Shown here piece by piece: positions 18,101 through 49,500 of a DNA stretch of 64,000 bases. Numbering within the stretch: position 1 is the first letter of the stretch; every line of letters begins with the position of its first letter. The stretch comes from Roseibacillus sp. (lineage in GTDB: Bacteria > Verrucomicrobiota > Verrucomicrobiia > Verrucomicrobiales > Akkermansiaceae): NCBI GenBank assembly GCA_051251855.1, contig JBPOGI010000007.1, forward strand, positions 32,001 through 96,000, given 5' to 3'. The notes under the pieces were generated by a model. That model did not search any database. It was not told the origin of the DNA and worked only from the letters and a program-made list of their open reading frames with translations. The position numbers and the translations under genes were made by a program.

Positions 18101-19276
18101 CTGTTCGGTAAACGTCGAGCTCCTGAATTCGTTGATCTCAGCTGTCCCCTTTGTGGGCATACACAGCGGGAGTCTTCACTTGCAATGTCGACAAACTGTC
18201 GCAGCTGCCAGACCTATTACAAAATTGAAGACGGGGTCGCTGTTCCTCCCGTCAAATTCGACGACAATCCACGTTATCAGGCTAGCGCGGACGAGCCAGA
18301 AGCAGACTCGGAGCCAGAGTCCACCGTCACACCGGTCCAGCCAGTCAAAGCGCCCGAGCAAAAGAAAAGCATCGAGCCCCTCCCCTCAGCCCCCGCTCAA
18401 GAGACCCGCCCCACTTCTAAGGTATCGTCGCCAACACCACCTGTCCCTGCGGAAATCCCGCTTGAGGACACTCCTCCAGCAGCTTCGGTTCCCAGCACTC
18501 AGCCACGAAACCCTCTCCCTAAAAAGGCGATGAAGCCCAAAGCTCCTCCACCGCCGCCCAAACCCGAGGCCGCCCCAACCGCCCCAGCCGAAGAAGTCTT
18601 AGTCAACACCCCATCCAAAAAAGCTCCGGAGGCAACTATACCCAAACCTTCTGAGCCAGATGTGACCCAAGCATCTCCCGAGCGCTATCGTCCTCCCTCT
18701 TCAGCAACATCCGAAACGAGTAAGCCCAAAATTGCGCCTCTTATCAATCGTGAGAAGAAGCGCGACGTCAAATGCTTCGAGTGTAACGAATCTCATGAAA
18801 TCCTCGCCGACTCAACTTCCGCCATGTGCCCTCATTGCGGAGCCTACATTGGCCTCAAAGACTACGACATCCGCGAGCAAGAGAACTCCCGTATCCAGAC
18901 CCGCGGTAACGTTTTCATTCACAAAAAGGGCTACGTAACGGGCATCACTATCCATGCTCACAATCTCATTATTGAAGGCGAAATCCAAGGTGGTGCCGAA
19001 TGCACTGGCGACTTCGTTGTTCGTAAAAACGGTAAGATCAACGGAGCCGTCACCAGTGACCGAGTCATCATTGAGCGCCGAGCCGAAGTCGACTTCCTCA
19101 GCACCGTAGAAGCTCGCGAAGTCATTATCGATGGCCACGTCACCGGATCCGTTGCCTGTAAAAAGCTGGTTCTTAAAAAGCGCGCCACTCTTGATGGCGA
19201 CCTCACCGTCGCCTCCCTCTCTGTAGAAGAAGGAGCCAAACACACTGGTAAAATTCAAATGACAGGACTCTTATAG
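18101..19276 (+). CDS. Bactofilin with two zinc ribbons and a Pro-rich linker (probable CTG start at 18101; first ATG at 18185)
   Basis: The in-frame upstream extension supplies CPLC to pair with CRSC. A second ribbon is CFEC/CPHC; the bactofilin domain is C-terminal. Confidence 0.8.
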   Translation: MFGKRRAPEFVDLSCPLCGHTQRESSLAMSTNCRSCQTYYKIEDGVAVPPVKFDDNPRYQASADEPEADSEPESTVTPVQPVKAPEQKKSIEPLPSAPAQETRPTSKVSSPTPPVPAEIPLEDTPPAASVPSTQPRNPLPKKAMKPKAPPPPPKPEAAPTAPAEEVLVNTPSKKAPEATIPKPSEPDVTQASPERYRPPSSATSETSKPKIAPLINREKKRDVKCFECNESHEILADSTSAMCPHCGAYIGLKDYDIREQENSRIQTRGNVFIHKKGYVTGITIHAHNLIIEGEIQGGAECTGDFVVRKNGKINGAVTSDRVIIERRAEVDFLSTVEAREVIIDGHVTGSVACKKLVLKKRATLDGDLTVASLSVEEGAKHTGKIQMTGLL

Positions 19277-19295
19277 ATCTCCTGATTCCTTCGCT

Positions 19296-20234
19296 ATGTC
19301 TAGCCATCTCACTCTCGGAACACGCGGCAGCGCCCTCGCCCTTTGCCAGGCCGAAATGACCGAAGCCGCCCTTGCCTCCTTTTGCCAGCTCACCCGCCAA
19401 GTCATCGTCACCACCGGTGACAAGCGCACCGACGTCCCTCTCGCCGCTGTGGCTGCGGCCTCCGGAGTCGTCGACAAAGGCGTCTTCATCAAAGAACTAG
19501 AAGTCGCCCTATTGGATGGCGAAATCGATTTCGCCGTCCACTCGCTCAAGGATGTTCCCACCATCCTCGAACCCGAGTTCGAGGTCTGCGCCGTCCTTCC
19601 CCGCGCCCCCACCGGTGATGTCCTCATCACAAGCGGCCCTTCTCTCGGCGAACTACCCGCAGGAGCCACTATCGGAACCTCATCCGTCCGTCGTAAGCTG
19701 CAACTCCTCCACCTTCGCCCTGACCTCAATGTCGTCGACATCCGAGGCAACGTTCCCACCCGTTTACAAAAGGTTGTCGACCAACCCGAACTCGACGGCA
19801 CTATCCTTGCCGAAGCTGGTCTCGTCCGCCTCGGCTACGAAACGAATGGCGCTCTCACCACCGAAGCTGGAGACCCCCTCGCGGCCCACCTTCTCGACGC
19901 TACCGAATTCCTTCCCGCCGCCGGCCAAGGTGCGGTCGCAATGGAAATTCTCAAAAGCAACGATGCCGCCCGAGAAATCCTCCAAAACATCAATCACGAG
20001 GAAACCATGGCGCGCATCACAGCCGAGCGCCACTTCCTCGCCCTCCTCCAAGCCGGCTGCGACACCCCCGTCGGGGTACAATCTTCAGTCACTGGTGACT
20101 CTCTCCAAATGGAAGCTCGAGTTTTCGAAGAGGACGGCAGCCTCCGAGCTAGCAAAGCCATCGGCTCCCTCGGCACTCCAGAGATATTGGCAGATAACCT
20201 CTTCCGATCTCTGGCAAATATCTCTCCCCAATAA
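19296..20234 (+). CDS. hemC: Hydroxymethylbilane synthase (porphobilinogen deaminase)
   Basis: GTRGSALAL, KGVFIKELE, AVHSLKD, GTSSVRR, IRGNV.TRL, PAAGQG and GCDTPVG. Confidence 0.97.
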   Translation: MSSHLTLGTRGSALALCQAEMTEAALASFCQLTRQVIVTTGDKRTDVPLAAVAAASGVVDKGVFIKELEVALLDGEIDFAVHSLKDVPTILEPEFEVCAVLPRAPTGDVLITSGPSLGELPAGATIGTSSVRRKLQLLHLRPDLNVVDIRGNVPTRLQKVVDQPELDGTILAEAGLVRLGYETNGALTTEAGDPLAAHLLDATEFLPAAGQGAVAMEILKSNDAAREILQNINHEETMARITAERHFLALLQAGCDTPVGVQSSVTGDSLQMEARVFEEDGSLRASKAIGSLGTPEILADNLFRSLANISPQ

Positions 20235-20459
20235 CTGGCACGCTAACCACCACAGGGAAACGCTCAAACTACTAAATTCAAGCACTTTACGCTCGTCTCA
20301 CTCACGAAGTGACGCCCATGACAGCAAGAGAAACTTGATGATAAATGTAGAACCCCGCCGGAAACCGCTTTATGTTAGATAACTGGCGAAGTTTCCTTAT
20401 GAAGATTCGTTCTCAAAAGACTGTTAAGATATTCGATTCCAAAACGTTAGTAATTGATA

Positions 20460-23400
20460 ATGAATAAAGCCTTTCTCCCCCATCCCAAACGGCTTGCTTC
20501 CTCTCTGGGCTGCTTCCTTCTATGCCTGTGTTCCGCCTCCGGCGACACTACCATCAATGTTTGGGGCCTGGACCGAGATTCTTTTGGCTCAAACGTGGGC
20601 TCTCAAGGAGCCATTACAACGACAACAGCCGGAAATCGACAAACAGTGACCTACAACGTCACAAATCTGGACCTTGCCGAGGATGGATCGGCCAACGACA
20701 CCCTCACGTTCTCGATCGAAGTAGCGGCTGATGGAGGTACCGTTTCAGGCTATTCGAATGCCGATGGCGACCCTTGGGGCGTCAGCAGCGCTGCTGGCGA
20801 TGCCATCCGCTTAGGGGAAGGTCTTAACTTCAGCCTCCTTTCTTCCGACATCACCTTTGGAACTCAAGGATCAGAAGCAGGACTCGCATTCGTCGGCTTT
20901 ACTGGGGTGAATTCTTGGTTCTCAAATGGCGATGTAGGAAGAATCGCTGGAGCCACTTCCACCGTATCAGGAGACGATTTTGGGACTTCTATCGTGTCAG
21001 GAGGGTCAAACGTCGGAACGGACTTTCAGGAACCAGTCGACCAATTTTTCATTCGTTCCGAAGGACCCGCAGCCAACGGCTTTCATCTCGGAAAACTGAG
21101 ATTAACGTTCAAAGCTTCCCCCTTGAGCACCTTGTCAGGGGTATTGGACCAAATGGAGGCTCACTTGAATGGTTCAAGCACTCTCAATGCTGGGCAGATT
21201 CAGACTCTCAGCACGAATCTGCGAAACAACATCGATATGCTCGGTGCCAGCGAGGACATTTTAGAGCAAGCCATCGCGGTGGTGGAACTCTATGAGGACG
21301 TGCGTGGGAGTATCTTTAGCGGCGGTCAATTCAACCGCGATCAATTCAACAACGTCAATAATGCCCTCAGACAGACTTCATTGGACTTGCAGCAGGGGTT
21401 GATTCTCCATGGTTGGACCCCTCAGAACGTGCAACGCTTTCGAAGCTCTCTGGAGGACAAGCCTTTCTTATCTGCCAACTTCTTCCCGGGAGCAGTAGCC
21501 CCACCAGCGAATCCAAGCGCAGTCTATCAAGTCCAAATCAACGCCGATGTGCCTCGACAATTTGGGTTTCCTCACTTGTTCAAATGGGATGCCACCCGTC
21601 GCCCCACCGGAGCTTATCTCGCCCCAGGGAGCATCGCGGTGGTGACTGTCCCCCCTGAATTGGTCGATAAGGGCTATCAAATTCGAGTCAATGCACACGT
21701 GCACGAACTTGAGCGTTTGTCTTGGTATCGACGAATGGACTACATTTCAAAGGTCTACCCCATTACTTCCGAAACGGTCGAAATTGCCAGTCCCGTCGGA
21801 GGAGGAATTTACATCGATGTCCCCTATGGCTCGGAACATGGCCTTCAGACCATTCAATTCCAGAACATTGTCCGGGCCCCCTTCTATTCGAATACCGTGG
21901 CACGCCAAACGTCCCTTCAAGATTGGTTGGATACCGAGCGGCATCACCCCGCTCCTTGGGCCGACTTTGAGTCCGACGTCTACATGATGACTCTCCCCCG
22001 AGATTGGGTCTACGCTTGGGGGGTGAATAGCGGCGACGACAATCCCGCTTTCTCGATGGACCAGTGGGACGACACCATGGACGTGATCAATCACCTCTAC
22101 GGTTATAAAGAAAAACGTTCCAAGACCACGCTCTATCTCATTGTTGATGTCGCCATCCGAGCGAATGTGTTTTCGCCGGGCTACCCTCAGTCCAACAGCT
22201 CCTTCAATCCAGCGAGTGCCTCCCAAAACGGACGTTCAAGTAACGAAATCCTTAATGGACCCAAATTCTTAGGCTCCGAACAATTGCACGAGCTAGGGCA
22301 TGCCGAGTACTTCACCAAGTTTAATGGAGAAGTCGAAGCGGCAGTCAACATTCCCTACGTGATGGCTCATTACTTTGCCCTGAATGTCTCGATTGACCAA
22401 TCACTGGGACGGTCGGTAGGAGATGCTTCACGAAACGGATGGAGCCGAGACCAGTCGGCCATCCATTGGATGGTCACCGAAGATTTTCGAGAAGGAGTTT
22501 GGAACATGACCAGCCAACAGATGCAGTATCAGCAGCGCGGCTATGCGGACTACGCTGATCTTGCCTACATGTATGGTTTGAACTCGCTACACCGGTTTTG
22601 GTACGGCGACCACGTCGACTACGAAAATGGAATTTCTTATCTACGCAACAGTGACGAGTCCTACAGCCGCATCCAGCGAATGTCGAAAGCTGCTGGCATT
22701 GATCTGAATCCTCTCATGCACTTCTGGGGGAATGCTGCTGGGAGCCACAACAACATGCAGTCTTGGATGGATACGAATAACATCCCCGACTCCCGCCTCA
22801 TTTATGATCGGTTAAAGCACTACCAATCTGTTATTCCCAGCAATCTCACTCAGTTCCGGACTCACAGTAATATCTTCTATTCGCACCTCAATGCGACCGA
22901 CAAAGCCTACTACGACACCATGCGGGCCAATGGCGGATGGGGTCAGGAAGAGCACGATGAGGTCGATGCGCGAGTGCAGTGGATCATCGACCGCTTTTTC
23001 CCGAATGGGCGTCCCAAAATCACAAGCTATCCCCACGTCGCGAACTTCGACGACAATTACAACGAGTGGGGGCACCAAGAAAATGACGATTGGGATTGGC
23101 GCCTACACACCGGCCCCTCCGAGTCTACAACTGCGGGCTCCCTCGGTGCTCCCGATAACTCGCAGTATCTCCTGTTAGAAGGACACGATACCAGTAGCGG
23201 AGAGAAAAAATCGCACATGGATTGTGTCTACGACATGCGTGGCTTGTCAGGTGCGAAACTGACCTTCGACTACCACATGTGTGGTCCGTATGTCGACTCG
23301 CTCTCGGTGGACGTTCATGATGGCACGCAATGGCATGCCGATGTCTGGATCAAAGAAGGTCCCCAACAGCCGACTCCCAGCGATCCGTGGGAATCAGCAA

Positions 23401-24434
23401 CTGTTTCTTTGAGTGCTTTTGTCGGTAACGAACAAGTCGTAGTGCGGTTTCGGGGACAGAAAGCGTTTTGGAACGCCGGCGACATCTCTCTCGATAACGT
23501 TGTCGTTGATGAGGCCGTGAACTATCTCACTCTCCCCTACTCCGAGAGTTTTGAATCTGGTCTCGGCTCTTGGAAACAGGCTACAGGCGAAAACGTGAAT
23601 GGCGAGATGGATTGGACCCGTCACAGTGGCCCCACCGACACAGGGGCAACGGGCCCTTCGCAGGCCTCCGACGGCAGCTGGTTCATTTACTTCGAGGGTC
23701 ATGACAACGGCATTCAGTTTAAAACTGCCTCCATCGACAACTTTTTTGATTTCACCGGAAACTCAAATCCCCAGCTGAAGTTCGACTATCACATGTTCGG
23801 CCCCTACATCGATTTCCTAGCCGTTGATATTCATGATGGAACTGCTTGGACCGATGAAGTCTGGAAGAAAACAGGAGCCCAGCATGGAGCGAGTGAGGAC
23901 GCATGGAGCACGGCTACGGTTGATCTTTCGACTCAGGCAAACCTTCCCAATGTCACTATCCGCTTCCGCGCCAAACAGCAGCGATGGCACGCCGCAGATA
24001 TGGCGGTGGATAACATCTTCGTCGAGAATGTGGATCTCGCTACTCCCTACAGTCTGTGGGCCGCGGTAGCTCTTGCAGGAGCGACTCCAGGCACTGATAT
24101 CACCGAAAGCGGCAATGCCGATGGCGACCGCTATACCAACGTAGAAGAATGGATCTTACTCCTCGATCCCCTCGTTGCCGATCATCCTGTTTTAACAACA
24201 ATGACTACAGCGGGAGGCTTTTCAGTCACCTATGATCGACGCAATGTCGAAAACCCTCAGGTTCGCGCCGCTTGGTCGCGTGACTTACAACCAGGGAGTT
24301 GGAAGTATCATGGAGACGGATTAACAGAGACTCTTCTCCAGACGAACGGAGACGTCGAAACGGTCTCAGCTATTGTCCCCTTCGACGAAGAGAAAAAGTT
24401 CATCCGGCTCGAAGTCTGGACTTCGGCAAACTAA
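20460..24434 (+). CDS. Secreted M60-like zinc metallopeptidase with an unknown N-terminal domain, two MAM domains and a C-terminal sorting-like domain
   Basis: PTGAYLAPG, SPVGGGIYI, APWADFE and HELGH-x10-E; MAM-like units (W..HSGPT..TGP, LxFDYHM.G, D..[LV]DN). Confidence 0.85.
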   Translation: MNKAFLPHPKRLASSLGCFLLCLCSASGDTTINVWGLDRDSFGSNVGSQGAITTTTAGNRQTVTYNVTNLDLAEDGSANDTLTFSIEVAADGGTVSGYSNADGDPWGVSSAAGDAIRLGEGLNFSLLSSDITFGTQGSEAGLAFVGFTGVNSWFSNGDVGRIAGATSTVSGDDFGTSIVSGGSNVGTDFQEPVDQFFIRSEGPAANGFHLGKLRLTFKASPLSTLSGVLDQMEAHLNGSSTLNAGQIQTLSTNLRNNIDMLGASEDILEQAIAVVELYEDVRGSIFSGGQFNRDQFNNVNNALRQTSLDLQQGLILHGWTPQNVQRFRSSLEDKPFLSANFFPGAVAPPANPSAVYQVQINADVPRQFGFPHLFKWDATRRPTGAYLAPGSIAVVTVPPELVDKGYQIRVNAHVHELERLSWYRRMDYISKVYPITSETVEIASPVGGGIYIDVPYGSEHGLQTIQFQNIVRAPFYSNTVARQTSLQDWLDTERHHPAPWADFESDVYMMTLPRDWVYAWGVNSGDDNPAFSMDQWDDTMDVINHLYGYKEKRSKTTLYLIVDVAIRANVFSPGYPQSNSSFNPASASQNGRSSNEILNGPKFLGSEQLHELGHAEYFTKFNGEVEAAVNIPYVMAHYFALNVSIDQSLGRSVGDASRNGWSRDQSAIHWMVTEDFREGVWNMTSQQMQYQQRGYADYADLAYMYGLNSLHRFWYGDHVDYENGISYLRNSDESYSRIQRMSKAAGIDLNPLMHFWGNAAGSHNNMQSWMDTNNIPDSRLIYDRLKHYQSVIPSNLTQFRTHSNIFYSHLNATDKAYYDTMRANGGWGQEEHDEVDARVQWIIDRFFPNGRPKITSYPHVANFDDNYNEWGHQENDDWDWRLHTGPSESTTAGSLGAPDNSQYLLLEGHDTSSGEKKSHMDCVYDMRGLSGAKLTFDYHMCGPYVDSLSVDVHDGTQWHADVWIKEGPQQPTPSDPWESATVSLSAFVGNEQVVVRFRGQKAFWNAGDISLDNVVVDEAVNYLTLPYSESFESGLGSWKQATGENVNGEMDWTRHSGPTDTGATGPSQASDGSWFIYFEGHDNGIQFKTASIDNFFDFTGNSNPQLKFDYHMFGPYIDFLAVDIHDGTAWTDEVWKKTGAQHGASEDAWSTATVDLSTQANLPNVTIRFRAKQQRWHAADMAVDNIFVENVDLATPYSLWAAVALAGATPGTDITESGNADGDRYTNVEEWILLLDPLVADHPVLTTMTTAGGFSVTYDRRNVENPQVRAAWSRDLQPGSWKYHGDGLTETLLQTNGDVETVSAIVPFDEEKKFIRLEVWTSAN

Positions 24435-24449
24435 AGAAAGTAGCTGAGA

Positions 24450-25658
24450 ATGACTCATCTGCGCTCGCTCGCATCTCTTTTGGTAGGGTTCTTATGGGTA
24501 AGCATCCTTCCAATAGCGCAAGGTCATATCATTGATCAGGTCTACGCAGAGCTGAGAACCCAAGGAACAGGCTTCGAAGTCAAAATGGTGATCGACGCCG
24601 GCTATTGCCTTCCTGAATACCGAGGGGACAAGAACGAAAAAGCTCCAGACTCGGCTTGGATTAATGGACTCGACGAAGAAGAGCACGCCAGACTCAGAAG
24701 AGAGGCCGAGAGCTATCTCCGCAAGACGCTCACCTTCTTTCAAAACTCGGAAGAGGTCGCCTACGAGATTACCTTCGAAGACTACGCACAGGAGCCTTAC
24801 AAATTCTATGAATCCATGTTCGGCGCCCCCACACTTCGATTGAATCTGAAGGCTGAATTTCTTCCTGCAGGTGGTGAGCTGCGAGCAAGTTGGCAAGATC
24901 CCTACGAAGCTATCCTTCTCTTCGTCGTGAAGATAAGAACAGAAGAACGAAGAGAAAACATCTCCATCCCCATAGAACCTAAAACGGAAAAGAAGCTGGG
25001 AATTCATGTGGAGCCCTTCCTTGCCCCCGATAATTCGTCCTCGGAAGTGTTAGAAGGCCGAGCAACCAATCCCCTTTCGAAGCGTACGGTCACCACGACC
25101 TCGAAGCCTCTCGGCTGGCTGGACTTCGTGAAGCTCGGCTTTCGCCATGTCATCCCGCAAGGTCTGGATCATATTTTGTTTGTTGTCGGGCTTTTTCTCT
25201 TCAGTCCTAAGTGGCGCCCTCTCCTCCATCAATCTTTAGCCTTCACGGTAGCCCACTCGGTGACCCTTGCCCTCTCGCTTACCGGCCTCGTTGGTTTCTC
25301 AGGCAAGTGGGTCGAAGCCTTGATAGCCTTGTCGATCGTTTATGTGGCGGTCGAAAATCTGCGGACTCAAGAAGAGGAGAAAGTCGAGTGGCCGCGATTG
25401 TTTCTCATCTTTGGCTTTGGGCTCCTCCATGGTCTCGGTTTTGGAGCCATGCTGCGTTTCTTCATGCCCAGCCAAGACGTGATCGCCCCCGTCATTGGAT
25501 TCAACGTCGGAGTTGAATTGGGCCAAATTGCCGTCCTGGCCGTCTGTTTTCTCCTCTTCGGGTGGTTTACCAAGCAATTCAAGTGGATCCGCATTCCAGG
25601 CTCTGTCGTGATCGGCTTAGCTGGACTGATATGGTTCTTTGAACGTGCCTTAGCATGA
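24450..25658 (+). CDS. HupE/UreJ family membrane protein with an N-terminal periplasmic domain
   Basis: GFRHVIPQGLDHILF, AFTVAHSVTL, FGLLHGLGF and GFNVGVELGQ. Confidence 0.9.
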   Translation: MTHLRSLASLLVGFLWVSILPIAQGHIIDQVYAELRTQGTGFEVKMVIDAGYCLPEYRGDKNEKAPDSAWINGLDEEEHARLRREAESYLRKTLTFFQNSEEVAYEITFEDYAQEPYKFYESMFGAPTLRLNLKAEFLPAGGELRASWQDPYEAILLFVVKIRTEERRENISIPIEPKTEKKLGIHVEPFLAPDNSSSEVLEGRATNPLSKRTVTTTSKPLGWLDFVKLGFRHVIPQGLDHILFVVGLFLFSPKWRPLLHQSLAFTVAHSVTLALSLTGLVGFSGKWVEALIALSIVYVAVENLRTQEEEKVEWPRLFLIFGFGLLHGLGFGAMLRFFMPSQDVIAPVIGFNVGVELGQIAVLAVCFLLFGWFTKQFKWIRIPGSVVIGLAGLIWFFERALA

Positions 25659-25746
25659 CCACGCAAGATTCTTGAAAATGCTAAAGTCCGGATAGACGCT
25701 CTAAAACCGAATCTGTTGCTCTCTCTATCAGTGTCCACCTTTCTCC

Positions 25747-28575
25747 CTAAGGAAAAGTCTGTCCGGCGGGAACGAGAATGTAGAAACGCTTTGCGTCCGC
25801 CACATCATCTTCCACAAACGGAGAAGCGGAAACATCTTCCGCAATCGGAGTTCCGAAATTCACGAGGTCTGAAGAGGCATAGACATCAACATCTCCTGAC
25901 GAAGCGAATGAAACGCTGAACATCAATCCAGAATTCGTTCCAGGGGCGCTGCTACAATCAGTGATGACGATACCATCTGTGGCGCGAGGTGGCTCGACGG
26001 CATTGGGGTCAATCACGATGCTCCCCTCATCTTCTTGGGTGTCTACTGTGACATTTCCGGAGAGAGTTAGAACACCCGCTCCCTTTTTCAAAAGAGTGTA
26101 GGGTCCGACAAAGTCGCCTGAAATCACGACATCTTCCCCATTGGTATCAATCACTAGGAAGGAAGTTCCACCACCATCCCAAACGACGTCAGAAGAAATC
26201 GCAGCAAAGTCATCACCTGTCGCGTTGGAAGGTCCCGCAATCGCGCCAAAGCCTGCATTCGCGGAAACGCTTACGAGTGTGAGATCGGGAGTAATGGAAG
26301 CAAGACCATCAATAATGAGGCAACCTTCAGAAACCACAGTAGGCCCATAACTTTCAGGCGCGGTGCCAGCGACTCCAGCCGTGCCAGAGAAACGAAGAAC
26401 TCCCCCTCCCGTTTTGGTAACGGTCTTGGTTGCTGCTCCTTGGTTAACAAGGTCTGCAGAAACAAGAAGGTCAGTGGCTGCGGCTCCATCCTCGACATCA
26501 AAGGTAAAACTCGAACGAATGGTGACGCGACCAGCAATCGTGGACGAATCAGCGCTTGCCTCACTATTGACCGCGGTGCCAATCGCGAATGCAAATTGAC
26601 CAGCTCCACTGGTTTGAATGGTGCTGCCTCGAAGATTGTATTCAATGGCAAATCCATTGTCCCCTCCCGCAAGGTGGTCCACCACTCCGCCATCAAAGAC
26701 GTTCAGCACATCAACCCTCCGGGCCGCATTAAATCCTAGCGCATTTCCGACATTCAAATTGAGAACGCCAGGCCCCGTCACGGTCACCTCTCCCACCAGC
26801 GTGGGAATTGGACCCGCTCCTTGGGCTAACTCAAGCACCCCATCATTAACAAAGGTTCCACCGGTAAAAGTATTGCCCGCTTCAAGAATGACGGTCCCCT
26901 CTCCATTTTTAATCAAACTGGTGGAGCCAACGATACCCGCATCAACGTTAGGAACGAGGGTGTAGTCATTCCCAAGACTGTTGTTAAAAGTGACTGCAGC
27001 TGGCTCAAGTGGCCCAACAAAGTTGTCCAGGGTGACGATTCCTGCCGCCGTATCGGTAAAGGTCACGCTATCATCAGCGAAGAAAAAATCATTGCTACCG
27101 GCATTGTCCCAATTCTGATCCGCCGCAAAGTCATCGCCTACAGACCAGAAGCCGCTACTTCCAAAATTGCTCCATACTAAATCAGCTGCGGCAGCATCTT
27201 GAATCACGAGAGCTGAGCCAGTATCAACTACTTGACCGCGTCCCGTATAGACAAGGTCACTCAAATCTCCCAAGACACTTCCGGTGTAAGTTAAGAGGGT
27301 CAAATCCCCAGTAGGCGTTTCATTCAGATTCAACTCTATCGGCCCCGAAATAATGACATCACCAGAAACCGAAAGAGCACCAGCTGTGACAGTATCGATA
27401 CTAAGCGTCGCATCCGATTCGAGAATCAGATCACCAGTAATCGAACCTTCCCCCGCCAAGGTGCTTTCAACGGTAACTGTTGAACCAAAATCAGACTGCA
27501 AATCAACGGTCCCAGTCGTTATCGTGAGACCGCCGGTAGCACCACCATTGCTTCCGCTCAAGGTCAAGGTTGCGCTCCCTGATTTATTGAGGGGTGCGAT
27601 ACCTACCAAATCCGACGAAATAGTCGCGTCGGCACTCGTCAAAATCTCAGGCGAACTTCCACCCATTGTCAGCGTATCCCCGGCGATTTCGTACCCAGCG
27701 ATTTCGTACGTCAGCGCGTTCGCGGTCACCGGTTCTGCAAGAGTCACTGTTCCCGAGGCACTACCACCAAAGACTGCGCTAGCACCATTCACCCATAGAG
27801 AATCGGCTCCACCTGCGCTGGCATCATCCCAATTGTTAGTGGTTGCTAAATCCCAGCTTCCACTGCCACCGTTGGCATCACTGTCGATATCTGTTCCATC
27901 CCAAAAGAGACTTTGCTCGGCAGTTGTGGACAAGGTGAAGGTCGCCGAAAGGTTATCGACCCCAAAACCATTTCCGCCGTCGGAGATGACTTTGAAGTCC
28001 GGCTGTGGGCTAACAAAGTCGTAAGGATCGTTAGGACCGCCATCGGGGCTTGAGGTAATGCTAATCGGGTTATCATCAATAGTGGTCAAATTGACGGTAT
28101 CCCCACCACCCGGAAAACGGCTGAAGAATCCAGTGAAACCAGAAGAAACAATGACCAGCGACTCACTCGTAGCATCTCCAAAAATAGTCGTTGCTGTTAG
28201 ATTGCTAAAGGTCACTCCCTCGTCTAAGTCGATTTCATTATCGGCAGGATCAGCTGCCCCGTCGACGCCGTATGAATACGCAGCACCAGCCAAAGGGGCT
28301 AGATTGCCATTGATCGAGGTCACGTCGTAGGAAAAGGTCACCTCATCGTTCGCGGTCCCATCCTCAGCAATGTCCAATCCGCTGACCGTGAAAGTATGGG
28401 TCGCGCTCGCCGTCGTTCCGTCTGCCGGAGCAACTACCGCCCCGACTGTGCCAACACTAGAGGTAAAAGCCGCGTTCAGGTCCAGTCCGCTAAGATTGAC
28501 GACCTCTGTTGCGAGCGCCGTGTTTGTAAACACCGGAACAGCCAGTGACAGTAAGAGAGATTTGTTTGGTTTCAT
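25747..28575 (-). CDS. Secreted autotransporter-associated beta-strand-repeat protein (no beta-barrel)
   Basis: Signal peptide; repeats LNKSGSATLTLSG, LIKNGEGTVIL..NTFTGGT.V..G.L, TKTGGGVL and LKKGAGVLTLSG. Confidence 0.88.
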   Translation of the reverse strand: MKPNKSLLLSLAVPVFTNTALATEVVNLSGLDLNAAFTSSVGTVGAVVAPADGTTASATHTFTVSGLDIAEDGTANDEVTFSYDVTSINGNLAPLAGAAYSYGVDGAADPADNEIDLDEGVTFSNLTATTIFGDATSESLVIVSSGFTGFFSRFPGGGDTVNLTTIDDNPISITSSPDGGPNDPYDFVSPQPDFKVISDGGNGFGVDNLSATFTLSTTAEQSLFWDGTDIDSDANGGSGSWDLATTNNWDDASAGGADSLWVNGASAVFGGSASGTVTLAEPVTANALTYEIAGYEIAGDTLTMGGSSPEILTSADATISSDLVGIAPLNKSGSATLTLSGSNGGATGGLTITTGTVDLQSDFGSTVTVESTLAGEGSITGDLILESDATLSIDTVTAGALSVSGDVIISGPIELNLNETPTGDLTLLTYTGSVLGDLSDLVYTGRGQVVDTGSALVIQDAAAADLVWSNFGSSGFWSVGDDFAADQNWDNAGSNDFFFADDSVTFTDTAAGIVTLDNFVGPLEPAAVTFNNSLGNDYTLVPNVDAGIVGSTSLIKNGEGTVILEAGNTFTGGTFVNDGVLELAQGAGPIPTLVGEVTVTGPGVLNLNVGNALGFNAARRVDVLNVFDGGVVDHLAGGDNGFAIEYNLRGSTIQTSGAGQFAFAIGTAVNSEASADSSTIAGRVTIRSSFTFDVEDGAAATDLLVSADLVNQGAATKTVTKTGGGVLRFSGTAGVAGTAPESYGPTVVSEGCLIIDGLASITPDLTLVSVSANAGFGAIAGPSNATGDDFAAISSDVVWDGGGTSFLVIDTNGEDVVISGDFVGPYTLLKKGAGVLTLSGNVTVDTQEDEGSIVIDPNAVEPPRATDGIVITDCSSAPGTNSGLMFSVSFASSGDVDVYASSDLVNFGTPIAEDVSASPFVEDDVADAKRFYILVPAGQTFP

Positions 28576-28844
28576 TTTTTAGTTTTTTTAGTTTGTTCGA
28601 CGGTCGGGAAAAGGGTTCAGCTCCGAGAAGGAGGGCAAATTTCGCAAAGCATTGGTCCAGTGGATTTTGCAGCGATAGAAAAACTATGAATCCATTTTCA
28701 CCTCAATAGACTTGAGAAAAATGAGCCGAACACCGAAATGAACCTCTCATACAGTTCTCAGGAGACGCTGCTTTCCCGCCCATCAACGCCCCCCACGAAA
28801 AGGCTGTTCCTTGCGAAAGGAACGACTTTTGAAAAGGCAGTCTT

Positions 28845-29579
28845 CTATTTACGGCGACGAAGCAGACCGAGGAGGCCAAGACCGCCTAAAAGTGCTGCAG
28901 ATGGCTCAGGGATTGGAGTTGCCGTGAGCTGAAAATCGAGATGGCCCAGGTAATAACCATTTCCGGCAGTAGGGTCGCTATCTACGGAAAATGAGGGAGC
29001 TAAAGCATCAAAGTTACTGGTGGCGTTTCCTCCGTTGCCATGCAAAATAGCCCCTCCCTTGGGAGTGTTTCCGTTGGTTCCAGGCGCGATCGTGGCACCG
29101 GTAATTGTGGGAACATCGCCCCCTCCAGTATACCAACTTGAAAGCCCGGTGAAGCCATCGAAGGTGATTGTGGCCGCTCCAGGAGCATCGCCAAAAGCAA
29201 CAGCAAAAGAATCAAGGGCGAACGAAAGCCCCTCGCCTGGGTCAATCTCAGCATCGACCCAGCCAGTAACTCCCCATTCCCCGCCAGCAGCATTGATGTC
29301 GTCGATCACGTTTCCACCCGTAGCAGAGATGAGGATGGAGACAGTAAGAGTATCATTGGCGCTCATGTCCTCAGCCAAGTCCAAGCCGGAGATTTGATAG
29401 GTCACTAACTGAGTCGTCGATTGCGCTCCAGCGGTAGTCGCGCCTGCAGTTCCCACGGAAGTGGCAAAAGAATCAGTACCTGCGTCTGTTACGGCCACAA
29501 CAGTAACCGCATTCGCCTGCATACAAGGAAGGCACGCCACGGCAGCTAGAATAAAGAAAGGGTTTGGTTTAGCTTTCAT
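28845..29579 (-). CDS. PEP-CTERM sorting-domain protein
   Basis: Signal peptide and C-terminal IPEPSAALLGGLGLLGLLRRRK. Confidence 0.95.
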   Translation of the reverse strand: MKAKPNPFFILAAVACLPCMQANAVTVVAVTDAGTDSFATSVGTAGATTAGAQSTTQLVTYQISGLDLAEDMSANDTLTVSILISATGGNVIDDINAAGGEWGVTGWVDAEIDPGEGLSFALDSFAVAFGDAPGAATITFDGFTGLSSWYTGGGDVPTITGATIAPGTNGNTPKGGAILHGNGGNATSNFDALAPSFSVDSDPTAGNGYYLGHLDFQLTATPIPEPSAALLGGLGLLGLLRRRK

Positions 29580-29733
29580 AGATTTTTTTAGTGGAAGTTG
29601 AGTTTTGAATTTTATTTGAAGGAAGAGAGCCAGACCCTTCCATTTAATAGAACGAGAGCGATCTGATAAACTTTAACGCGTTTATGGAATTTTTTCTATT
29701 CATCAAAGATTGATTATTTATCACACCCAAGAG

Positions 29734-31770
29734 CTATTTCTCCACAAGCTCCACCGCAGAAGAAAGACTCTCCGAGAGAACCGTGGTCACCTGCTCGGAA
29801 GTCACAATCACCCTTCGCAGACTCCTCATTTCCTGCAAGGGTTCAAGCGATTGAATCTTCGTGTTTCGAATATCAATCTCTCTTAAACGAAGTCCCTGAA
29901 GGTCACTCAAATTAGTAATCCTCGTCCCACTGAGATCCAGCCGCTCAAGATCCAAAAAACGCAGGAGGCTACGAGATGTTGGCGACCGCACTAATCGACC
30001 CAACCCTGGCCCACCTATCTTCAAAGCACGGGCTTCCGGTTGATAGTGAAACTGCTTTGAGTCCCAATCGGGATTCGCGACCGCGAGGACTTCTCGCACG
30101 CAAGCCGCTCTCGTCGAGTTCGACCTTTCATTCCGAGCATCATATTCCAGCATTTTTTCCGCCAGAGCAGAACGACTCCGTAGGTCGGGAGAATTCAGCT
30201 CCTGCAATAACTCTAGAAAGTCATCGTCAGAAAGGCTCTCACGTTGGTGCTTTTTAAGCGCATACTTGCGAGCAAGAGGAACAAGATCCGGGAAGACATA
30301 CTTACCCTCTTCCGTAATTCCGACTGCTTTCTCAAATTGCTGAGTGAGAAAATACATCCAGAATTTCTGATTCCAAATGTAGTGTCCAGGGGGCGGATTC
30401 TCCTCCGTAACAGCCTCAAGCCCCTTCAGATTAGAATCGAGGAAATCGGCGAAGCTGAAATCTCTCTTAAAAAAAAGATCGACGAGTTGGGATGAAGCCG
30501 TCCACGACAAGCGCGCTTCCCGTTGCAAACGAGCTTCCGAAACTTCCTTCTCCTCCTGTAACTCCTCAAGCGCTTTCAGCGTCCGAATCTTTGCTCGCTC
30601 TTCATCCGCCTGTGCGATCGTCGCTTGGCTCATGGCTTTCTCAGCCGCGTCCCGTGCTCGATTCGCCTCGTTTCGGCTGCTCTGTAGATTGGCAATGAAG
30701 AGGCTCGTGGCGGCAAACAAGATGAGCAACGAACCCAAGATAATATTCGAGACCTGACGGTTCCGCCGGTAAAACAGAGCGATTTCTCTTCGCGCCGTTT
30801 TCTTCTCTACGGAAGTTCGAAACCCTCCCAGATAGCGCTCCAAATCAAGCTGCATTTCCTCCACGGTCCGGTAACGCATCTCAGGCTCATTGGCCTTGGC
30901 CTTGCTCACGATAGCTTCCAAACCAGCATCTGCTTCCTGCTCTTCCTCCCCCACGGAGCCAGCAGATGCCGGAACGAGCAATTCCTCCATGATACAGCCC
31001 AGCGCGTAGATGTCCATTTGAGGGGTTTTGAGAACCCTCGGGTCAAAGAGCTCGGGAGCCATGTAGTTAGTCGTGCCCTTCACCGCCTGTTGCATGGAGC
31101 CATAGAGATCAGGATCCAGTAGAACGTCCGAGGTCTTGTCCTCTTCTGTTTGCACGACCACGCCTAGACCCCAATCGCAAATTTGAACCTCTCCAAAAGC
31201 TCCCACTTGAATATTGGCTGGCTTGAGGTCGAGATGAAGAACCCGCCGCGAATGCGCGTAAGAAACACCCTCAAAAATTTTCTGTAGAATACCCAACCGG
31301 CGAAGCAGAGGCCAATCCTCCTCCCCTCTTGCTTCTCGAAAATCAGCAAGAAGCGCCTTGAGTGAGCGGCCACGCTTAAACTCCATCGTAAAGAAGGGAC
31401 GCTCCTTCTCATCCACCCCCATCCCAAAAAGGTTGATAATGCAAGGGTGCTCCAAACGAGCTGTAATATGAGCCTCGCGCAGGAAAGAGTCGTAAAAATC
31501 TCTCCCCAACTTTTGCAAAGGTTTGGCCAAGGCCACTTGACGAGAAGTCCTGCGATCATACACCAAGTAGACTTCTTTCATTCCGCCCGTTGCGATCAGC
31601 TTTTTTTCGACATAGCGATCGTCTTCAGCTCTGAGAGAATCATAAAGAGGGGTTTGCAAATCCACCTCCTCCTCGCTCAGGCTCATCGGATCACCCTCCT
31701 CATAGAGCGAGTCCGCGAAAGACTCTAATCCGGAGAGGCTAGCCTTCTTCTTTTCCTCACTTTTGATCAT
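29734..31770 (-). CDS. Hanks-type Ser/Thr protein kinase with a TM segment, coiled coil and C-terminal LRR-like repeats
   Basis: GGMKEV, FLREA..ARLEHP, HLDLKPANI, DWG, GT..YMAPE and DIYALG; LERLDLSGTRI / LREIDIRNTKI. Confidence 0.93.
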   Translation of the reverse strand: MIKSEEKKKASLSGLESFADSLYEEGDPMSLSEEEVDLQTPLYDSLRAEDDRYVEKKLIATGGMKEVYLVYDRRTSRQVALAKPLQKLGRDFYDSFLREAHITARLEHPCIINLFGMGVDEKERPFFTMEFKRGRSLKALLADFREARGEEDWPLLRRLGILQKIFEGVSYAHSRRVLHLDLKPANIQVGAFGEVQICDWGLGVVVQTEEDKTSDVLLDPDLYGSMQQAVKGTTNYMAPELFDPRVLKTPQMDIYALGCIMEELLVPASAGSVGEEEQEADAGLEAIVSKAKANEPEMRYRTVEEMQLDLERYLGGFRTSVEKKTARREIALFYRRNRQVSNIILGSLLILFAATSLFIANLQSSRNEANRARDAAEKAMSQATIAQADEERAKIRTLKALEELQEEKEVSEARLQREARLSWTASSQLVDLFFKRDFSFADFLDSNLKGLEAVTEENPPPGHYIWNQKFWMYFLTQQFEKAVGITEEGKYVFPDLVPLARKYALKKHQRESLSDDDFLELLQELNSPDLRSRSALAEKMLEYDARNERSNSTRAACVREVLAVANPDWDSKQFHYQPEARALKIGGPGLGRLVRSPTSRSLLRFLDLERLDLSGTRITNLSDLQGLRLREIDIRNTKIQSLEPLQEMRSLRRVIVTSEQVTTVLSESLSSAVELVEK

Positions 31771-32374
31771 AGAGGCTTTCCTGTTCGAGTCTGATTTGAG
31801 CAATCTCTTGCTGCACCCGTTTTTTCACGCGGCTCTTGAGGACATAAACACTCTGTGATCGAATCGACAATCTCTCCCCGACTTCTTCCGCAGAGACCCC
31901 TTCGAGAGACAATCGGAGAACCTCGAATGCATTGCTCGAAAATACCGGCTTGAGTCGCTCCAAAGCTGTCGCAACCACATGGCGCTGCCATTCTCGCTCA
32001 ATCATCACCGTGATCTCGGGCGCCGAAATCGTTCGTTCATCGACACTCTCATCAGTGCCACGCTTCAGGTCCCTGTTTTTCTGTCCCCGCAACCAATCAA
32101 TGGCCACATTCCGAATCACGACTGCCAACCAACTGCGAAACTTGGAATCTTCCGATTGCTTTTGGTAAGTGCCGAGTCTCTGCCAGAGTTTCAGAAACAC
32201 CTGCTGCCTCACATCATCGATATCGGGCTCTCGAAATCACATATTCCTCAATACGGCGTCGATGAAAGGCTCGTAAAACTGAAGAAACTCATTCCAGACG
32301 TCATGCTCCGAAGAGGTCGTCACCCGCTAAATCATCGACGGCTGGGTGAGCATGGTGGAATGGTTTGTTGCCAT
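31757..32374 (-). pseudogene. ECF (sigma-70 group 4) sigma factor interrupted by two in-frame stops
   Basis: From ATG 32374: MATNHSTMLTQPSMI*RVTTSSEHDVWNEFLQFYEPFIDAVLRNM*FREPDIDDVRQQVFLKLW..FRSWL. Stops are TAG at 32327-32329 and TGA at 32237-32239; region 4 is intact. Confidence 0.85.
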
Positions 32375-32669
32375 CTTTTGTCTTTAGAAGGAAAAGAGTT
32401 AGTAAAGCCTAAATACAGCTCTGTGATGAGAGGTTTATCACCCTAAGATAATGAAGGTTATTCCAGTTCAACTCTCCTGAAAAGTCCCACCTCATTGAAT
32501 TCGACCTCAGCACCCTCACTCATTGAATCAGTCCCTTCGCAGCCTTCTCCTAAGACCATTTCAAAAAAAGGAAACAAGCTCATTCTCAAAAAGCGACTCC
32601 GAACCAACCCTTTTATTGGGTAGGAGAATCTATTGAAAATCCCCCTCATCTCTGCCAGCTTCCGCCCAC

Positions 32670-46199: not shown

Positions 46200-46568
46200 A
46201 GCAGTTTCACAAGCGAGCCTTGAAAGAAGCACCCCAACCTCAACCGCCAGAAGCAGCTGAAAATCAGCAAGTCGCACCCATCAAGAAAAGCAAGTAACCC
46301 AGCCTTGTAACACGGTTCTTCGCAGAAGATAGCATTACTTGGTCTTCTATCAGAACGAGACCCAAAAGTGATTGCGCAGAGATGATTCATTGAATGCTCC
46401 AGATTCTCTGTTTCTTGTGACTTCCATTGTGATCTCAGCACAACTACTTGAAATCACAGTCAAACAATTCCTCTTCCTTCGAGGTCCTCTCTATTGCTAG
46501 TAAATCCATCACCTCGTAAATCTTCTGGAAAAGGGGAAGGACACTCTCTATTTCTTCAGTGCAGTGTT

Positions 46569-49500
46569 ATGTTCTCTCATTTAAAAGCGTATCTTAGAAT
46601 ATTTTTCTTTTCATGGCTCACAGTCTTTGAACTCCATGCACAATTCGTCGTCACAAATACTGATGATAGTGGTGCCGGTTCTCTTCGCGCGGCCATCGCC
46701 TCAGGGAACAAGACGGTCACCTTTGATGAATCCTTGAATGGGACTGTCATTACGGTGCAATCGCCGCTTGTCCTCGATAATGAGATTACGATTACGGCTT
46801 CTTCTTTGCCTGATGGAATCCGCTTGAGTGGCAGTGGAGTGGGTCGAATTTTAGAAATCACTACCCTCTCTCCCTGCAACCTTCGGGGTCTGACTTTAGA
46901 ACAGGGTTTCAGCACTTCTGGAGCAGGGGCGGTCTTATGCGGGAGTGGAACCGTACCTTTCTTTGTGAATTGTATTTTCACAAATAATAGCACCTTGCAA
47001 TCGGGTGGCGCTGTTTATTGCGCTCAAGCGACTCCGACTTTTGAAAACTGCATCTTCCTTGGAAATAGCGCGGGCTCGACAGGCGGAGGTCTTACCAACC
47101 AAGACTCGGTTGTCACTTTGCGTAACTGCACCTTGACCCAAAACTCGAGCATCAATGGTGCCGCTGCGATTCATTCCACCACTGGGGGAAGCTCGATTAC
47201 GACCCTGAGAAATACCATTGTCTGGGATAATTCCGTGGGCGGTAACAGCTCGAATGCCAACGCTTCCATCAGCTTCGGAGGCGGAAATGTCGCTCGATTC
47301 CAATCTTCCATGCTGGCTAATTACAATGCGACAACGTTGGACAACAGCAATGTCGCATCAGGGAGCAACTTCTCTTCCGTCGATCCTCAGTTTCGATTGG
47401 AGACCTCGGACGATCTCCGTCTACTCCAGACTTCTCCCCTTCTCAATGGCGGAAACAATGCATGGGTGGACACGACAGGCCTCGACGTTTACAAACTGCC
47501 CAGACTCGTTGGCACTAATGTGGACCTTGGCGCAGCGGAAGCCCGTCGGCTCATCTACGTCGACATCGCCACCAATGGAGGGGAAACGGGCGACTCCTGG
47601 GCCGATGCCTTCACCTCTCTGCAAGAAGCGCTCTTCGACCAAAACGGCTCCGAAGCATTGGAAGTCTGGGTCGCGGAGGGCGTCTACTTGTCAAGCGACG
47701 GAGTCCCCAGCAACGCTCCTAACATCTTTACCATCACTGAGCATATTTCGATCTACGGGGGCTTCCCCTCAGGAGGAGGTGACGGCACTTTTGAAGAAAG
47801 AAACAACAAGCGGACCCCGAGCATTCTGACACGGGTCTTGAGTGCTGCAGAGCAAGCCGACCCATTTATTAGCAACGAATTTCGAGATCCCGATGTGATC
47901 GATATGGACGCTGAGAATGCTCCCGCAATTCTTGATGGCTTCACCATCACCGGCGGAAGATCAGAATGCTCGGGAGAGTGTATTGTGAGGAATTGCCATT
48001 TCACGGAGACAAAAGGGGTTGGTCTATTCGTCCTTCCCAACTATTCCCCGCCGCCTCCGGTGCTGATCGAAGATTGTGAATTCACCAAAATCGAGAGTAG
48101 AGGTTTGCCGAATGATCTAGGAGGCTTAGGTTCACCATTGGTTGGAGGCGCGCTCCGCATTCAAGAATTCAATCAGCAAGAAGCCTTCTCGATGGTCGTG
48201 AGACGTTGTTCATTCCGAGGAAACCTCTCTCGAACAGGCTCTCCCGGCATCAGCACGAGAATCACCTTCGATGAATCCCGCCTTGAAATTGAAGGCTGCG
48301 AGTTCACCGGAAACGTCGGCATTACCACCCCCAGTGCCATTGAATCGATTGGCTTTCATCAACTCTCCATCAGGAACTCAACTTTCCACGGGAATTCATC
48401 GGTCGCGGAAGAGGGTTCCCTTTTTCGACAAGAAGTGATCGTGGCCTCTCCTCCCTTTGGCCAGTCCCTCTTGTCCCGTGTTTCTCTCGCAGGATGCGTT
48501 GTTTCAGGAAATAACTTTCCCGGTAATATCTCGGTCTTCTACAAGCTGGATGGCGACCCTCAGAACATTCATATTGCAAATATGATTGAGGGGCTCTCCG
48601 CCTCATTTTTAAACAACCTCAGCATTTTCAATTCCGGTAATATTGATGAATCAGATCCGTTGTTCTTCCATCCCATCACTCCCGGAGACAGCCCCCAACT
48701 CACTGCCGATGTCCGTATCGCAGCCACCTCTCCCCTTCTCGACGGCTTAGCCTCCAACCCCAATAAGTTTGATCGCCAAGGCAACCCTCGGAATATCAAT
48801 GGCTCGCAAGACATCGGCGCCTACGAAGGGGGTAACATCATTCACGTGGATGCGGCAAGAGCTGGAGGAGATGGCTCAGGTTGGACTCAAGCGATGGTAG
48901 ACCTGCAGGATGCGCTAGACCTCGCCGAGACGCGGAGCGCTACGATTCCGGCCCAAGAAATCTGGGTAGCAGCGGGTGAATACCTTCCCGACGAAGGCTC
49001 TAGCCAGACGAACAACTTGAGAGACTCTACCTTCCATCTTCTTTCAGGAGTGAGGCTCCAAGGAGGCTACCCGAGCTTGGAATCAGGACTCCCTGCCGAC
49101 CGAGATTTCGTCGCCAATCGGACCACCCTTTCCGGAGATATCGATGGGGACGGATTGCTGGATGACAATTGCTATCACGTCGTCACCGCAACTGATACCG
49201 ACTGTTTGGCCAGCCTTGATGGCTTCACGGTGACGGGAGGAAATGCCAACTCGAGCTCAACTCGCGGACAAGGGGCTGGGTTATACATTGCGCAAAATGG
49301 AAGAGCTCACTTCGAAAGTTGTCAGTTTTTGGGGAACTCCGCTCGCTTTGGAGGCGGAGCCTTTGTGACTGCAGGCTCCTTTCCATCCTTCACCTCCTGT
49401 CTTTTTTCGGGGAATGCCGCGAGTAATGATGGAGGCGCTCTTGTCAGCGTCAGCAGCTCACTACCCGTCCTGACAAACTGCACTTTACAAGGAAACACCG

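Follow-up and report, generated by a model that had tools for sequence, protein, structure and literature searches.

Three neighbouring genes in the 64,000-nucleotide stretch of Roseibacillus sp. DNA analysed here (contig JBPOGI010000007.1, positions 32,001 to 96,000; hereafter, the window) encode exported proteins of different build, namely an M60-like peptidase, a PATR beta-strand-repeat protein and a small PEP-CTERM protein, and all three carry a similar domain behind the signal peptide. The locus raises the question of what one domain does both at the front of large secreted proteins and in a protein that consists of little else (hereafter, a solo). The features concerned are as follows.

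20235..32669, no strand: inserted cassette of about 12.4 kb between hemC and cobA/hemD (from adjacency of the flanks elsewhere and GC content)
20454..24434, + strand: M60-like peptidase, 1326 aa, with signal peptide (by inspection), shared domain, M60-like_N, Peptidase_M60, two MAM domains and a C-terminal domain
20544..21125, + strand: shared domain copy 1 (P0001), in the M60-like peptidase
22287..22301, + strand: HELGH zinc motif of the M60-like peptidase, with a further Glu after it (GEVE) (motif as given in part of PMC3267712)
24099..24431, + strand: uncatalogued C-terminal domain of the M60-like peptidase, predicted to be Ig-like
24450..25658, + strand: HupE/UreJ_2 membrane protein (Pfam)
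25747..28575, − strand: PATR beta-strand-repeat protein, 942 aa, with a C-terminal domain of the same kind as that of the M60-like peptidase
27922..28509, − strand: shared domain copy 2 (P0002), in the PATR protein; by the tree, of another subfamily than copies 1 and 3
28845..29579, − strand: PEP-CTERM solo, 244 aa, with signal peptide, shared domain, PEP at 28902-28910, hydrophobic stretch and basic tail
28920..29507, − strand: shared domain copy 3 (P0003), in the PEP-CTERM solo; acidic loop at 29337-29402
29734..31803, − strand: Ser/Thr kinase with C-terminal leucine-rich repeats, open frame
31757..32374, − strand: ECF sigma factor gene, probable pseudogene (TAG at 32327-32329, TGA at 32237-32239)

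Three Exported Proteins Share a Homologous Domain

The three domain regions translate without stops, and all 18 sequence blocks through which the first-pass annotation had proposed a common domain were found in frame where it had placed them. That proposal is borne out for a domain of about 195 residues. The copies are homologous at about 40% identity (42% for the M60 copy and 38% for the PATR copy, each against the PEP-CTERM copy, over 206 columns), and the local alignment scores of the three pairs (225, 325 and 231) are more than twice the best of 500 shuffles each (96, 81 and 90, respectively; z of 19-30). A recent local duplication is ruled out, since long DNA similarity between the copies is absent. 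In a FastTree phylogeny of 117 rows, the solo groups with M60 copies (SH 95); the PATR copy falls among solos from other lineages, outside the subfamily of copies 1 and 3, and is 59-61% identical to those solos, i.e., closer to them than to the solo next to it. All window copies are acidic (21-27 D+E against 1-8 K+R), and the PATR copy contains no Trp.

Pfam agreed with the host proteins as first described (M60-like_N, Peptidase_M60 and MAM; PATR repeats; PEP-CTERM). The peptidase carries the HExxHx(8,28)E motif and matches PF13402 and is divergent (Pfam E 1.4e-11; no sequence relatives in the PDB at E<=0.01). The tail of the solo scores 23.8 bits with PF07589 against a cut-off of 20.7, and the genome holds two matches to the exosortase family PF09721 above cut-off.

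The Locus Is an Insertion with a Disabled Sigma Factor Gene

Since hemC and cobA/hemD are adjacent in four of five same-genus genomes, the segment between them in the window is an insertion; its GC content is 51.6%, versus 54.4% and 53.8% in the flanks. Terminal repeats and a convincing shared upstream motif were not found in the cassette (the upstream motif was sought partly by eye). In the closest same-genus genome (G004:C1), hemC lies 294 kb from cobA/hemD; the junction has thus been rearranged more than once.

The ECF gene lies directly beside the intact kinase gene, and the pair had been expected to control the surface proteins. As encoded, it cannot do so: the sigma factor gene contains two in-frame stops, and ECF control of the window locus is therefore broken. 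Similarity to two intact paralogs continues through both stops, and a contig in run X1, which may be the source of this DNA, is identical. Recoding is unlikely, as two different stop codons would have to be read through in one gene of a table-11 genome. Kinase-linked ECF groups are described in part of PMC7826278. The two paralogous ECF-kinase pairs closest to that of the window lie in or beside solo-plus-cargo loci built on other domains. This suggests that the solo-plus-cargo layout is usually ECF-controlled, in which case solo and cargo would be induced together, and that this control has been disabled here. In hand-picked loci of the domain family, a FecR-like or kinase gene directly precedes the solo in 6 of 27 cases. 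The window locus is a decaying, horizontally acquired example; intact loci, such as L057-L059, exist elsewhere. By eye, a hairpin followed by a T-rich sequence (28800-28840, − strand) is also seen directly after the solo gene and could make expression of the PATR gene weaker than that of the solo.

An Uncatalogued Domain Family with an Acidic Loop

The domain, which the first-pass annotation did not recognise, belongs to an uncatalogued family. None of the three window copies matched Pfam at E<=0.1; sets of 28 and 59 family members gave only single marginal matches in Pfam, none of them to a CBM family, and likewise only single marginal matches in NCBIfam. A profile search of PDB sequences returned nothing at E<=10. 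All Atlas matches (best 0.76) were to hypothetical or unnamed clusters and serve as a lead only. A search of the openly accessible literature found no published description of the domain or of the solo-plus-neighbour pattern.

The family is nonetheless broad. A three-row profile retrieved 43 representatives among 1.84 billion, 15 of them at E<=1e-10, with named relatives in Pontiella, Phycisphaeraceae and Mariniblastus; the same profile matched none of eight same-genus genomes. With a 28-row profile, the domain was found in at least 22 of 300 genomes of the same family, at least 8 of 400 of the phylum and at least 10 of 54 of another family, the genome-search counts (n=300-400) being lower bounds with 8-11 candidates scored per genome. 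One genome (G691) alone yielded 22 matches with a 59-row profile; the first searches thus understated the size of the family. Pattern scanning, an insensitive method and a weak guide to absence, gave one locus in genomes and none in metagenomes with the core alignment, and no loci with the M60 alignment; a search for longer proteins with the domain gave a single match, which is weak evidence.

The first-pass annotation had read the motif D[LI]AEDxxAND as Ca2+-binding. A Ca2+ loop is plausible; as a hallmark of the family, the motif does not hold, since 12 of 117 rows have the D[LI]AED form, a subfamily variant. The wide family consensus of the acidic loop is LDLDGxGxxxD, which we take to resemble the Dx[DN]xDG calcium loop. 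The best-kept polar residues are D43, D47, N/D51 and D52 of this loop, together with E92 (over 117 rows, position 52 is D in 92% and position 92 is E in 81%), and conservation overall is highest at the loop acids and at Phe/Gly of the core. Most of the conserved aromatics are strand Phe residues, probably part of the core. To judge from this conservation, the DxDxG..D loop likely binds Ca2+.

The Predicted Fold Lies Closest to Carbohydrate-Binding Modules

A lectin-like beta-sandwich had been guessed from the sequence, and the predicted model is indeed all-beta with a lectin-like fold: copy 3 was modelled as a 12-strand jelly-roll (pLDDT 90.2, pTM 0.87). Its best structural match among 48,161 chains is 9q5u_A, titled a putative CBM (Z 9.2, rmsd 3.5, 128 aligned residues, 16% identity) and the sole row above Z 8. 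A toxin domain follows at Z 7.5, and then, at Z 6.1-7.2, CBM8 (7.2), CBM22, CBM29, CBM15 and a porphyran CBM, with many CBMs near 6. Foldseek returned no row at E<=0.001; CBM32, CBM6 and discoidin-type domains make up most of its weak rows, and a CBM32 (E 0.026) leads the non-viral ones. The model thus places the domain among the jelly-rolls, with carbohydrate-binding modules as its nearest predicted neighbours, a modest match in a fold that does not by itself show function.

The Domain Occurs as a Solo and as an Optional Part of Larger Proteins

The family alignment comprises 103 proteins: 59 with PEP-CTERM, 29 larger fusions and 15 short or partial entries (including the three trimmed window domains). 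Within large proteins, the domain may be N-terminal, internal or in tandem, with up to four copies. Its fusion partners are sulfatases, GHL15 proteins, a beta-helix protein, DUF1800 proteins, a His-phosphatase, Ig-repeat proteins, and M60 and PATR proteins; the DUF1800 and His-phosphatase carriers are not glycan enzymes. The domain was absent from all 18 M60 relatives taken from hand-picked loci; an M60 of this kind is present in at least 27 of 300 genomes of the same family. On these architectures, it behaves as an optional accessory module. A sulfatase gene is present in 28 of 43 hand-picked family loci, compared with 30% of random 20-kb windows, a background rate drawn from the source genome only.

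Several variants were noted in passing. Distant members in the same genome include a PEP-CTERM solo beside a DUF1800 fusion (L085:4097-9105) and a protein of 794 aa that has the domain three times in tandem (L028). In three solos (L058:6613-7419, L059:7756-8541 and L060:8106-8903), a tail of the form LL.[IV]G[GN][IL].[IL]I[LM], with few or no basic residues, replaces PEP-CTERM and is possibly another sorting signal. In P0009, P0011, P0022, P0023 and P0052, the solo domain is followed by a twice-repeated acidic motif that resembles a dockerin; P0009 had no NCBIfam match.

Solos and Fusions Often Lie Side by Side

The arrangement of a PEP-CTERM solo plus a cargo fusion, which the first-pass annotation had suggested might recur, is found in other loci. 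Among the 43 hand-picked loci, 7 hold a solo and a fusion, three of which (L057-L059) are probably one orthologous locus; two further such loci are present in G691. Counted by gene in the hand-picked set, a partner of the other form lies within 10 kb of 10 of 27 solos and of 9 of 32 fusions, with L124 counted as a fusion, although it is in fact a PEP-CTERM solo in a 360-aa frame. For 12 hand-picked solos with a neighbouring fusion, the neighbour was among the 4 closest of 50 fusion domains in 7 cases and ranked 18-47 in 4. Co-occurrence of anchor and cargo is not a rule of whole genomes: with the wide profile, 5 of 10 genomes hold one form only, two having fusions only (G735, with five, and G077, with one four-copy protein) and three solos only (G035, G492 and G481), and a further three hold both forms far apart. 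The pairing is thus real and often subfamily-matched, and it is not obligatory.

A similar layout is seen with unrelated domains throughout the source genome, which has 85 PEP-CTERM frames by pattern. For 16 of its 72 PEP-CTERM solos, a non-PEP frame of at least 500 aa contains a homologous domain, and for 9 of these 16 such a large homologue lies within 10 kb, compared with 0.21 expected from permuting solos over the PEP-CTERM positions (none of 10,000 shuffles reached 9). The nine paired solos represent eight families without detectable mutual similarity; in the eight outside the window, as in the window's own, Pfam matches are limited to the tail. Most paired cargos carry the domain after the signal peptide. 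In hand-picked foreign loci, four of five other-family solos with a large homologue have one in the same locus (0.35 expected). Since pairing occurs with eight unrelated domains, the window is one case of a general anchor-beside-enzyme layout that is apparently undescribed. Loci L077-L084 (G000 C1, C6 and C8) hold the seven further unnamed families common to a PEP-CTERM solo and neighbouring large proteins, with identities of up to 62% (C1:565729 and C1:566722).

The large homologues have an end of their own, a shared C-terminal domain in 22 of 28 cases. This uncatalogued domain (S.DL..W...F[FY]R[LV]; the last ~75 aa of the PATR protein) is found on about 140 large proteins of the genome and matches large unnamed Verrucomicrobiota clusters in the Atlas. 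Its model is Ig-like, matching generic Ig folds only (Z<=7.2), and T9SS C-terminal domains were absent among its fold matches. Judging by its distribution, it could be an export, secretion or anchoring tag of large proteins.

What the Shared Domain May Do

On balance, we lean towards the domain being a glycan-targeting accessory module common to a surface binder and to secreted proteins. The 195-residue domain would be a mobile, calcium-stabilised sugar-binding module with a predicted jelly-roll fold. The solo would be sorted to the cell surface by exosortase as a non-catalytic binder, while the domain at the front of the peptidase and of the adhesin-like protein would guide each to the same glycan as the solo, or to a similar one; export or retention of the large proteins would depend on their own C-terminal domain rather than on the shared module. 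The CBM-like fold, the glycan-active carriers, the mobile, tandem and optional use, the sulfatase-rich loci, the conserved acidic loop, the exosortases and the subfamily-matched neighbours all count for this reading. Against it count the single structural row above Z 8, the empty Foldseek result at its threshold, the lack of a sequence match to CBM families and the non-glycan carriers, and the acidity of all copies is awkward for sulfated glycans unless Ca2+ bridges. The conserved aromatics, mostly Phe and probably part of the core, and the lack of Trp in the PATR copy also weigh against it. A single ligand is not assured, because the PATR copy belongs to another subfamily than the solo and 4 of the 12 solo-fusion pairs are poorly matched.

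Next in rank, and rather unlikely in our view, is that the domain is a structural or adhesive block with no shared ligand, a Ca2+-stabilised beta-sandwich spacer or coat unit whose neighbouring copies arose from local domain swapping by duplication and recombination. Local pairing with eight unrelated domains is what a general recombination habit would produce, the position after the signal peptide in most paired cargos would suit such swapping, and loop acids together with core Phe/Gly are the residues best conserved; PEP-CTERM genes are, moreover, often duplicated and lost, according to part of PMC1569441. The age of the three copies speaks against it, as does the PATR copy, which resembles solos of other lineages more than its neighbour. 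The copies have also been kept together in a mobile cassette, which suggests selection on a joint job, and the fold neighbours are mostly CBMs. The least likely reading of the three, which we regard as improbable, is homotypic docking, raised in the first-pass annotation as an assembly tag: the displayed solo would bind the matching domain on secreted proteins and hold them at the surface, the eight families forming separate lock-and-key pairs. Extended to Verrucomicrobiota at large, with each PEP-CTERM solo a receptor for same-family domains on neighbouring enzymes or adhesins and at least eight orthogonal families in one genome, this jelly-roll among them, the proposal is equally doubtful. 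The excess of solo-carrier neighbours both genome-wide and in foreign loci, the sister grouping of solo and M60 copies, and a single clade that unites the solo and sulfatase-fused copies of three loci would all fit docking. A dedicated docking system is nevertheless not supported: the majority of solos and fusions have no partner within 10 kb, and some genomes have a single form. Copies in tandem or inside a protein would be expected of an avidity module more than of a tag, the domain is missing from closely related M60 enzymes, and most large homologues, both large window proteins included, carry a C-terminal domain of their own.

Relation to Known Systems

Glycan targeting by the shared domain would have its parallel in galactose-binding-domain-like CBMs (CBM32 2v72, CBM6, CBM8 7t7z, CBM22 and CBM29; the putative CBM 9q5u), which have the jelly-roll beta-sandwich predicted for the window domain and are also optional, mobile and sometimes tandem on secreted enzymes, with carriers that include glycan-active enzymes (here, sulfatase, GHL15, beta-helix and M60 proteins); a Ca2+ loop, likely in the window domain, would be a further likeness. 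The window domain differs in having no sequence match to Pfam CBM families, in its length (about 195 versus 130-160 residues), in its identity of at most 16% in structural rows and in occurring mostly as a stand-alone PEP-CTERM protein.

In Bacteroidota, polysaccharide utilisation loci encode surface glycan-binding proteins under ECF/anti-sigma control. The layout described here likewise places a predicted non-catalytic surface binder beside glycan-active enzymes, whereas a SusC/SusD-type pair was not seen in the cassette, and anchoring is by PEP-CTERM rather than by a lipoprotein signal. The cohesin-dockerin pair of the cellulosome consists of two unrelated folds in an obligatory partnership. 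There, too, an anchored non-catalytic protein is encoded beside modular secreted enzymes; in the window system, the same domain stands on both sides and most copies are partnerless, and neither Pfam nor NCBIfam found a dockerin or cohesin domain in the window's proteins.

According to part of PMC3267712, adhesion and glycan-binding domains account for 92% of the Pfam domains associated with M60-like proteins, and in BT4244 a CBM32 stands N-terminally (BACON-CBM32). Like the M60-like peptidases with N-terminal CBMs (BT4244; ZmpB 7jfs), the window M60 has an intact HExxH...E and a predicted beta-sandwich ahead of the catalytic unit; unlike them, it is a divergent enzyme from a marine free-living context with a new front module. 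The solo has the parts of a PEP-CTERM/exosortase substrate as set out in part of Haft et al. 2006 (PMC1569441), with signal peptide, PEP motif, hydrophobic stretch, basic tail and many copies per genome. Homologue pairs with and without the tail are called rare in the passages of that paper drawn on here, which do not mention neighbouring; in the source genome, a neighbouring large enzyme as the tail-less homologue is a pattern seen genome-wide.

In sum, this is a new domain family, CBM-like in its predicted fold, within a general anchor-beside-enzyme layout. Marine Verrucomicrobiota break down complex algal glycans, and dozens of their PEP-CTERM proteins match nothing. In this genome, many of them are free-standing counterparts of modules found on secreted enzymes nearby; for each, the substrate of the neighbour becomes a ligand to test, and the layout points to a pool of uncatalogued CBM-like families; docking, if true, would be a new way of holding enzymes on the cell.

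Two minor observations concern the window itself. A frame of 1884 aa at 46494-52148 (+ strand) has marginal Pfam matches only. Short, near-identical contig pieces (0-5 differences) from a macroalgae metagenome (run X7) cover 19000-28042, a weak hint of an alga-associated habitat.
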